DNA of 64,000 bases from a phage, in the sequence record PZ386957.1. One strand, given 5' to 3'. This document shows, piece by piece, positions 57,118-57,168 of this stretch (within the stretch, counting starts at the first letter, position 1; each line of letters opens with the position of its first letter). Below the pieces are notes generated by a model, which saw only the letters and a list, made by a program, of their open reading frames with translations, had not been told where the DNA came from and did no database searches. The position numbers were made by a program, and so were the translations under genes.

Positions 57118-57168
57118 AAACTCCTTGTGTTAATAACTCTAGCAATGTTATTTATGCACAAGGAGTTT
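57118..57168 (-). promoter_or_regulatory. RBS-sequestering hairpin with late-promoter-like CATAAATA in its loop, upstream of the HNH gene
   Basis: Perfect 12-bp inverted repeat (plus-strand AAACTCCTTGTG / CACAAGGAGTTT) whose 3' arm on the minus-strand mRNA contains the SD AGGAG; loop carries CATAAATA. Confidence 0.6.

Follow-up and report, generated by a model that had tools for sequence, protein, structure and literature searches.

A probable temporal translational switch ahead of an HNH homing endonuclease gene in the split-intein nrdA locus of a Krischvirus-like phage

Introduction

How can a selfish homing endonuclease gene that interrupts an essential early gene be kept silent while the interrupted gene is being expressed? 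The question is raised by a phage DNA of 64,000 nucleotides (hereafter the window, to which all positions refer), in which a free-standing HNH endonuclease gene lies between two pieces of nrdA and is preceded, at 57118-57168, by an inverted repeat that covers its ribosome-binding site. The pairing of a hairpin that sequesters a ribosome-binding site with a late promoter has been published for I-TevI-III, segB, Aeh1 mobE, and the split-intein "fractured genes" (PMC2988022, PMC3014915, PMC2677866), and an earlier note on this DNA was accurate in calling the scheme one that is known for the homing endonucleases of T4. In the T4 cases, the RNA that reads through at early or middle times forms a helix over the Shine-Dalgarno sequence or the AUG, and a late promoter in or next to the 5′ strand of that helix gives rise to a late RNA that is devoid of the helix and is translated (PMC2988022, PMC3014915). 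I-TevI also represses its own gene, since it binds to an operator with which the late promoter of that gene overlaps (PMC2988022). These T4 genes are located in group I introns or between genes, whereas the gene in the window is placed in a split intein. The mechanism itself is already well known from T4 and its relatives; what the window adds is its occurrence with an endonuclease of the HNH class and in a coliphage-type lineage, as compared with the published fractured genes.

Organization of the interrupted nrdA gene

The window comes from a Krischvirus-like (RB49-like) phage that shares 83-96% identity with JK32, Brandy, RB49, and others. All features of the locus lie on the minus strand. 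The endonuclease gene (56171-57115) encodes a protein of 314 aa that matches Pfam HNH (4.3e-6) and phrog_655 (5.6e-24) and belongs to the Mob-like homing endonuclease group; its HNH motif is present and its ORF is intact. The upstream ORF (57181-58788) carries the N-terminal part of nrdA and, after the residues SNL, the N half of an intein, 100 aa in length (57483-57184, CLSGETMV...ELVVK). The downstream ORF (55141-56178) begins with the intein C half of 33 aa (56178-56080, ...ILVHN), which is followed by the C-terminal part of nrdA starting from a Cys (CMEITLP). The stop of the HNH gene overlaps the start of this downstream ORF by 8 nt (AUGGUUGA), and a separate GGAG for the latter lies 8 nt upstream of its ATG. 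The earlier note had described the HNH gene as embedded in nrdA; the gene is indeed inside the nrdA region, but it is not simply embedded there, since it lies between the halves of a split intein.

Each intein half is matched by Pfam Intein_splicing, although each alone scores below the gathering threshold, and the two halves when fused match the solved NrdJ-1 split intein at 5e-15, with gp41-1 also matched. The NrdJ-1 and gp41-1 inteins of Dassa et al. are the ones most similar to the intein of the window. The residues needed for splicing are present, namely Cys1, the terminal HN, and the +1 Cys. With these catalytic residues, the intein halves are predicted to undergo the trans-splicing that would restore NrdA. 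The codon at the insertion site, that of the conserved Cys in SNL/C (the slash marks the insertion point), is the one that we take to be the equivalent of E. coli Cys439. In 60 Krischvirus records nrdA is uninterrupted and lacks exactly the ~1.4-kb insert. When 50,697 phage records were searched with the insert at the nucleotide level, only weak patches of 66-74% inside other HNH genes were returned.

At the 3′ end of the HNH ORF there is also a sigma-70-like site, ATGACA-18-TATAAT (11/12; 56209-56180, minus strand). It ends 2 nt before the ATG of the ORF for the intein C half and the nrdA C-terminal part, which is too close for a normal leader, and it is probably a chance match.

A hairpin over the Shine-Dalgarno sequence

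In the RNA sense of the minus strand, the spacer upstream of the HNH gene is read in the order AAACUCCUUGUG (5′ arm, 57157-57168), CAUAAAUAACAUUGCUAGAGUUAUUAA (27-nt loop, 57130-57156), CACAAGGAGUUU (3′ arm, 57118-57129), AU, and the AUG (57115-57113). The earlier note had claimed a perfect 12-bp inverted repeat here, with the Shine-Dalgarno sequence of the HNH gene in its 3′ arm and, in its 27-nt loop, a box one base away from the T4 late motif, and all of this was borne out. The repeat search gave two arms of 12 nt each, 27 nt apart, with 100% complementarity (12/12) on the minus strand. The 5′ arm contains an anti-Shine-Dalgarno CUCCUU and is separated from the stop codon of the nrdA N-terminal part (57183-57181) by 12 nt. 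The Shine-Dalgarno AAGGAG (57126-57121) is located entirely within the 3′ arm, with a gap of 5 nt to the HNH AUG (57115), and the first 8 bases of the loop are CATAAATA, which agrees with the late motif TATAAATA in 7 of 8 positions. In both the minimum-free-energy and centroid structures, the loop forms an inner helix of 6 bp between AAUAAC (57152-57147) and GUUAUU (57137-57132).

RNA folding, which the earlier note had proposed as a check, gave a strong and stable hairpin with z values of -4.1 to -5.3. The bare hairpin has a free energy of -19.3 kcal/mol (z = -5.3) and its 106-nt context one of -27.4 kcal/mol (z = -4.1), and in neither case was any of 200 shuffles as good. The helix is also rare. 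Perfect inverted repeats whose arms reach 12 bp or more and whose loop measures 3-40 nt number only two in the whole 64-kb window, against 0.35 expected from a first-order Markov model of the window's own sequence. When the segment from -70 to +20 was folded around all 87 gene starts in the window, the HNH start showed a pairing probability of 0.90 over -15 to +3, the highest of all, compared to a median of 0.47. The probability that a loop of 27 nt contains by chance a box with at most one mismatch to TATAAATA is about 1.8%, and for a box of the form NATAAATA it is about 0.27%. By these repeat statistics, the rank among the 87 starts, and the box probabilities, a chance origin of the hairpin together with the box was rejected.

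A Rho-independent terminator was likewise rejected as an identity of the stem-loop; the terminator scan is silent at this position, the loop has 27 nt rather than 3-8 nt, and the tail (TTTATATG) has no T run. With an E-value limit of 1, an Rfam 15 covariance-model search of 56900-57400 matched no family on either strand. Between the first part of the loop with its late box (CAUAAAUAACAUUG, 57143-57156) and codons 3-7 of the HNH gene (CAAAGCUAUUUAUG, 57094-57107), the complementarity is 86%, a possible alternative pairing on the readthrough RNA that the minimum-free-energy fold does not choose. The other perfect 12-bp inverted repeat of the window, at 219-292 on the plus strand (TAAGTTCTTTAA ... 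TTAAAGAACTTA, 34-nt loop), belongs to a long ORF that runs off the start of the window, and a 10-bp repeat (TAATATTCGC ... GCGAATATTA) is interleaved with it.

The late box in the loop

The box CATAAATA at 57149-57156 corresponds to a T4 gp55-type late promoter element, which spans -13 to -6 in the T4 rule (PMC1524935), with C in place of T at -13. The perfect element TATAAATA occurs eight times in the window; seven copies precede plus-strand genes of the structural-gene region and one precedes the homologue of gene 31. Since all eight are positioned 28-50 nt upstream of ATGs on the same strand, TATAAATA behaves in the window as it does in T4. Of the three copies of the variant CATAAATA, one is within the HNH gene in antisense orientation, and the other two each precede an ATG by 41 nt, that of the HNH gene and that of alt, so that the spacing at the HNH gene is in line with that of the other late boxes.

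The copy ahead of alt bears on whether C is tolerated at -13. It lies at 37024-37017 on the minus strand, 41 nt before the ATG of this late gene (36983-34932), directly after an intrinsic terminator (GGGGCGTAAAGCCCC followed by a T run), and it is invariant in RB49 and GEC-3S. Because alt is preceded by an intrinsic terminator, it needs a promoter of its own, and in the phage under study CATAAATA is the sole late-type box upstream of it. Late promoters of the genus Krischvirus thus seem to tolerate C at -13. Position -13 is the most variable one of T4-type late promoters, RB49 included, and variant promoters are used (PMC2988020, PMC1524935). The T4 variants at -13 mostly have A (PMC2988020); A is among the common T4 variants quoted and C is not, and the C could weaken or kill the promoter of the window. 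A search of the literature library for CATAAATA together with late promoters found no paper.

The same position is occupied by T in the nearest relatives. Ten metagenome contigs have a perfect TATAAATA where the window has CATAAATA, and by homology to this perfect element the identification of the loop box as a putative late promoter is supported. The C at -13 additionally removes a 13th base pair that is found in these relatives. Transcription from the box would be predicted to start within the loop, at G57143 on the minus strand, 13 nt past the first base of the box.

Conservation and covariation among relatives

Relatives of the HNH element were found by protein-level searches in sources that include IMG/VR and metagenome assemblies. 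The nearest are the ten contigs mentioned above, in which the HNH protein is 91% identical and the layout is td, nrdA N-terminal part, HNH gene, and nrdA C-terminal part. Their 66-nt spacer is identical to that of the window except for one base, the T for C at -13, and in the alignment the spacer of the window ranks with the 100-nt blocks of highest conservation. The remaining HNH homologues are diverged, with identities of 42-54%. In total, 17 distinct loci were counted with the window included; among them is one of the ten contigs (L012), which has the hairpin of the window.

A hairpin with z ≤ -3.6 that covers or abuts the Shine-Dalgarno sequence or the AUG was present in 14 of the 17 distinct loci. 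In 13 of the 17, the loop or the 5′ arm carries a box of the form (T/C/A)ATAAATA, located at -24 to -41. Across the loci, the readthrough leaders fold with -14.6 to -31.2 kcal/mol and the predicted late leaders with 0 to -3.1 kcal/mol. The cassette is not obligatory, since a strong hairpin is missing from three of the 17 loci and the box from four. The stems of the diverged loci are unrelated in sequence apart from the Shine-Dalgarno sequence and its complement. Where stems can be aligned, the changes are compensatory: those of L028 and L029 differ by three double changes and no one-sided change with 100% pairing kept, compared to 28-48% pairing in slid registers, and those of the Yersinia phage TG1 and L022 differ by one change from G-C to U-A. 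Such compensatory changes argue for selection on the RNA pairing rather than on the DNA sequence. The insertion site in nrdA (SNL/C ... VHN/C) is the same in every locus with readable boundaries, and the SNL/C site is common to the window, at least 15 loci from metagenomes, and TG1.

The closest annotated HNH homologue, with 49% identity, is that of Yersinia phage vB_YenM_TG1 (YenMTG1_233/232/231, KP202158). Similar to the window, the HNH gene of TG1 lies between nrdA ORFs with intein halves at the same SNL/C ... VHN/C site, and a 12-bp hairpin covers its AAGGAG; TG1 has a perfect TATAAATA at the junction of arm and loop. Its spacer reads AUGAUGCUCCUU-AUAAAUAAUUAAA-AAGGAGCAUCAU-A-AUG. In contrast to the window, the stem sequence is unrelated save for the Shine-Dalgarno sequence, and the box is 27 nt from the ATG rather than 41 nt. 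The TG1 record annotates two 'ribonucleotide reductase' CDS and the HNH gene, with no intein and no regulatory feature.

Predicted temporal switch and its alternatives

Three perfect (12/12) sigma-70 consensus promoters were located upstream on the same strand by a consensus scan, at 63928, 62849, and 61405. The nearest of them is TTGACA-16-TATAAT at 61378-61405, and no terminator-like site was found by the scan between these promoters and the hairpin (61378-57168). From this arrangement early readthrough RNA would be expected, and the 61378-61405 promoter is a likely source of early transcripts that read through frd, td, and nrdA. The earlier note had proposed that RNA arriving from nrdA has its ribosome-binding site occluded and that RNA initiated in the loop has it open. 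The former holds at the level of the sequence, with a readthrough leader that includes the 5′ arm folding at -21.7 kcal/mol (z = -4.3) and pairing of 0.90 over the initiation region. The latter agrees with the folding of the predicted late leader, from 57143 to +20, which reaches only -0.5 kcal/mol (z = +1.9; 199 of 200 shuffles are as stable or more so) and lowers the pairing of the HNH initiation region to 0.35. Among the ten late boxes in the window, a large occlusion switch was seen at the HNH box only, and the other late boxes showed no comparable one.

Taken with the conservation described above, these properties make it probable that the spacer acts as a temporal translational switch for the selfish HNH homing endonuclease gene. 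At early times, host RNA polymerase would start at the sigma-70 promoters upstream of frd-td-nrdA, and the transcripts would continue through the N-terminal part of nrdA into the HNH gene. On this readthrough RNA, the 12-bp helix (about -19 to -22 kcal/mol) would pair AAGGAG with the upstream CUCCUU, and with the Shine-Dalgarno sequence so paired, the loading of the 30S subunit is proposed to be blocked and the endonuclease thus not to be made early. The two halves of nrdA, having their own ribosome-binding sites, would both be translated and then joined by the split intein. At late times, RNA polymerase with gp55 should recognise CATAAATA in the loop and start near G57143, and the resulting RNA, without the 5′ arm, would have an open leader of 28 nt and be translated. 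We infer promoter activity, the start point, and late-only translation at the HNH locus from the box and the folding of the two leaders. Pairing at the base of the helix might be briefly weakened by a ribosome that terminates 12 nt upstream, at the stop codon of the nrdA N-terminal part.

The C at -13 leaves room for a hairpin that works with a dead promoter. The stem-loop would then be a constitutive translational attenuator and CATAAATA a decayed, inactive copy of the TATAAATA of the relatives; the endonuclease would be kept low at all times from readthrough RNA, or hardly made, as expected of a degenerating homing element. The window alone has the change from T to C, the C lies outside the A that prevails among the T4 variants, and the 13th pair of the stem is lost with it. 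A hairpin can also be effective alone, as the Aeh1 hairpin by itself lowered the translation of a reporter according to the account of Gibb and Edgell 2009 given in PMC3014915. However, the same CATAAATA is the only late-type box ahead of the late gene alt and is conserved there across Krischvirus, the HNH ORF is intact with its motif kept, and the predicted late leader is unusually unstructured (z = +1.9). We regard this explanation as unlikely.

Two further explanations move the function away from HNH translation and are both very improbable. The stem-loop could act on the mRNA of the nrdA N-terminal part, as a terminator, attenuator, 3′ stabiliser, or processing site, with the occlusion of the Shine-Dalgarno sequence being incidental. 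It starts only 12 nt past the stop codon of that part, and the mRNA of Aeh1 mobE is reportedly processed, an observation said to be that of Gibb and Edgell in 2007. Nevertheless, the terminator scan does not flag the stem-loop, with its 27-nt loop and its tail UUUAUAUG; the homologous hairpins have no T run, and termination at the hairpin would sever the essential C-terminal part of nrdA. In most of the hairpin homologues one arm overlaps or abuts the Shine-Dalgarno sequence or the AUG (the exceptions, of the L025 type, have the Shine-Dalgarno sequence outside), a recurrence that is unexpected for a 3′ stabiliser. The repeat could instead be meaningful as DNA, being an operator bound by the endonuclease in an I-TevI-like autorepression, a site of recombination or cruciform formation, or a chance repeat. 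The operator of I-TevI does overlap its own late promoter (PMC2988022), and a 16-mer at 57164-57179 (minus strand), 5′ of the hairpin, shows a 12/16 inverted match to the intein-less nrdA junction TGTGCATGGAAATTAC, as does L024 with a 14/16 inverted match in the same relative place; no such match was seen in the other loci. When the reconstructed intein-less homing site was compared with the spacers of eight loci, however, the similarity was not significant in most of them, with p = 0.09 for the window, p = 0.005 for L024, and 0.04-0.99 for the other six (6/8 loci above 0.04). Chance is excluded by the repeat statistics and the occlusion ranking, and arms that include the Shine-Dalgarno sequence or its complement and vary by compensatory changes fit RNA pairing. 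The 16-mer may have been left over from the target site, may serve as an operator, or may match by chance, and a DNA operator could at best be an addition to the RNA switch, not its replacement.

Relation to known systems and implications

The gene arrangement in phage Aeh1 is close to that of the window. In the passages of PMC2988022 and PMC3014915 that describe it, Aeh1 mobE is a free-standing HNH gene between two nrdA pieces in the nrd operon, has a late promoter with a hairpin that sequesters the ribosome-binding site, and overlaps the downstream nrdA piece by its 3′ end. The two systems differ in that the nrdA pieces of Aeh1 have no intein and are assembled through tails (PMC3045599), whereas the gene in the window is flanked by a split intein, and in that the late box of Aeh1, compared here by its published description, is of the CTAAATA type (PMC1524935), unlike that of the window.

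The split-intein fractured genes reported by Dassa et al. 2009 from marine metagenomes, with nrdA among their hosts, are the other close parallel (PMC2677866). A hairpin in the 5′ UTR of the endonuclease gene was found there in 15 of 16 cases, 10 of which had TATAAATA (PMC2677866). As in the window, the host gene is divided between two ORFs, the intein halves measure ~100 aa (N) and ~35 aa (C), and the endonuclease ORF overlaps the downstream ORF (PMC2677866). The endonucleases of Dassa et al. are GIY-YIG or Vsr-like, HNH cases having been predicted only (PMC2677866), whereas the HNH type (Mob-like, phrog_655) is found in the window, in TG1, and in 15 or more metagenomic loci. Furthermore, the earlier cases come from marine metagenome reads, whereas the window comes from a coliphage lineage of the cultivable type (Krischvirus). 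As judged from its sequence, the window locus has every feature by which a T4-type switch and a fractured gene are recognised.

A broader reading is that the hairpin and late box form an integral, co-mobile part of an undescribed HNH-type 'fractured gene' family that targets the SNL/C Cys of nrdA across many phage lineages; we offer it tentatively, its chance of being right falling somewhat short of even. If it is true, the stem sequence turns over freely while the pairing, the anti-Shine-Dalgarno sequence, and the box are maintained, the element carries its own portable late-only switch, and the change from T to C at -13 in the window is a natural attenuated allele.

The predicted switch would extend the regulatory pattern of split-intein fractured genes to HNH endonucleases and provide a clean comparative example of how a selfish endonuclease gene can stay silent during expression of the essential early gene in which it sits. 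The example sits in an RB49-like genome of the coliphage type, which is tractable in the laboratory, and T and C at -13 of the late box constitute a natural allele pair for the tolerance of late promoters. For annotation, paired "ribonucleotide reductase" ORFs such as those of TG1 would be read as one split-intein gene together with a regulated homing endonuclease.

Other features of the nrd region

The stop of nrdA is closely followed by a sigma-70 promoter of near-consensus sequence, TTGACG-17-TATAAT (55128-55100, minus strand), with a G+C-rich stem-loop, CGGGGAGAAATCCCCG, between its -35 and -10 elements. The promoter with its stem-loop resembles the promoter-early stem-loop cassettes of T4-type phages. 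A second free-standing endonuclease gene (HNH_3 + AP2, phrog_99) lies at 54011-54550 on the minus strand, between three small ORFs and nrdB, which is where mobE lies in T4. This gene is absent from the closest relative contig (L012), in which the small ORFs are directly followed by nrdB. Neither a hairpin nor a late box was found upstream of the HNH-AP2 gene (54550-54011), so that the feature is no general property of the region.

The thymidylate synthase encoded at 58854-60086 (minus strand) has 410 aa, with an insertion of ~140 aa between two stretches matched by Pfam. It is full-length in all 59 Krischvirus records that were matched and is therefore a trait of the lineage, not specific to the phage of the window. 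In OR525698.1 (vB-Eco-KMB43), the match to the nrdA region is broken into three pieces over ~3.2 kb (134274-137464) and overlaps a gene annotated as DNA-cytosine methyltransferase, which suggests a different insertion in or beside nrdA.
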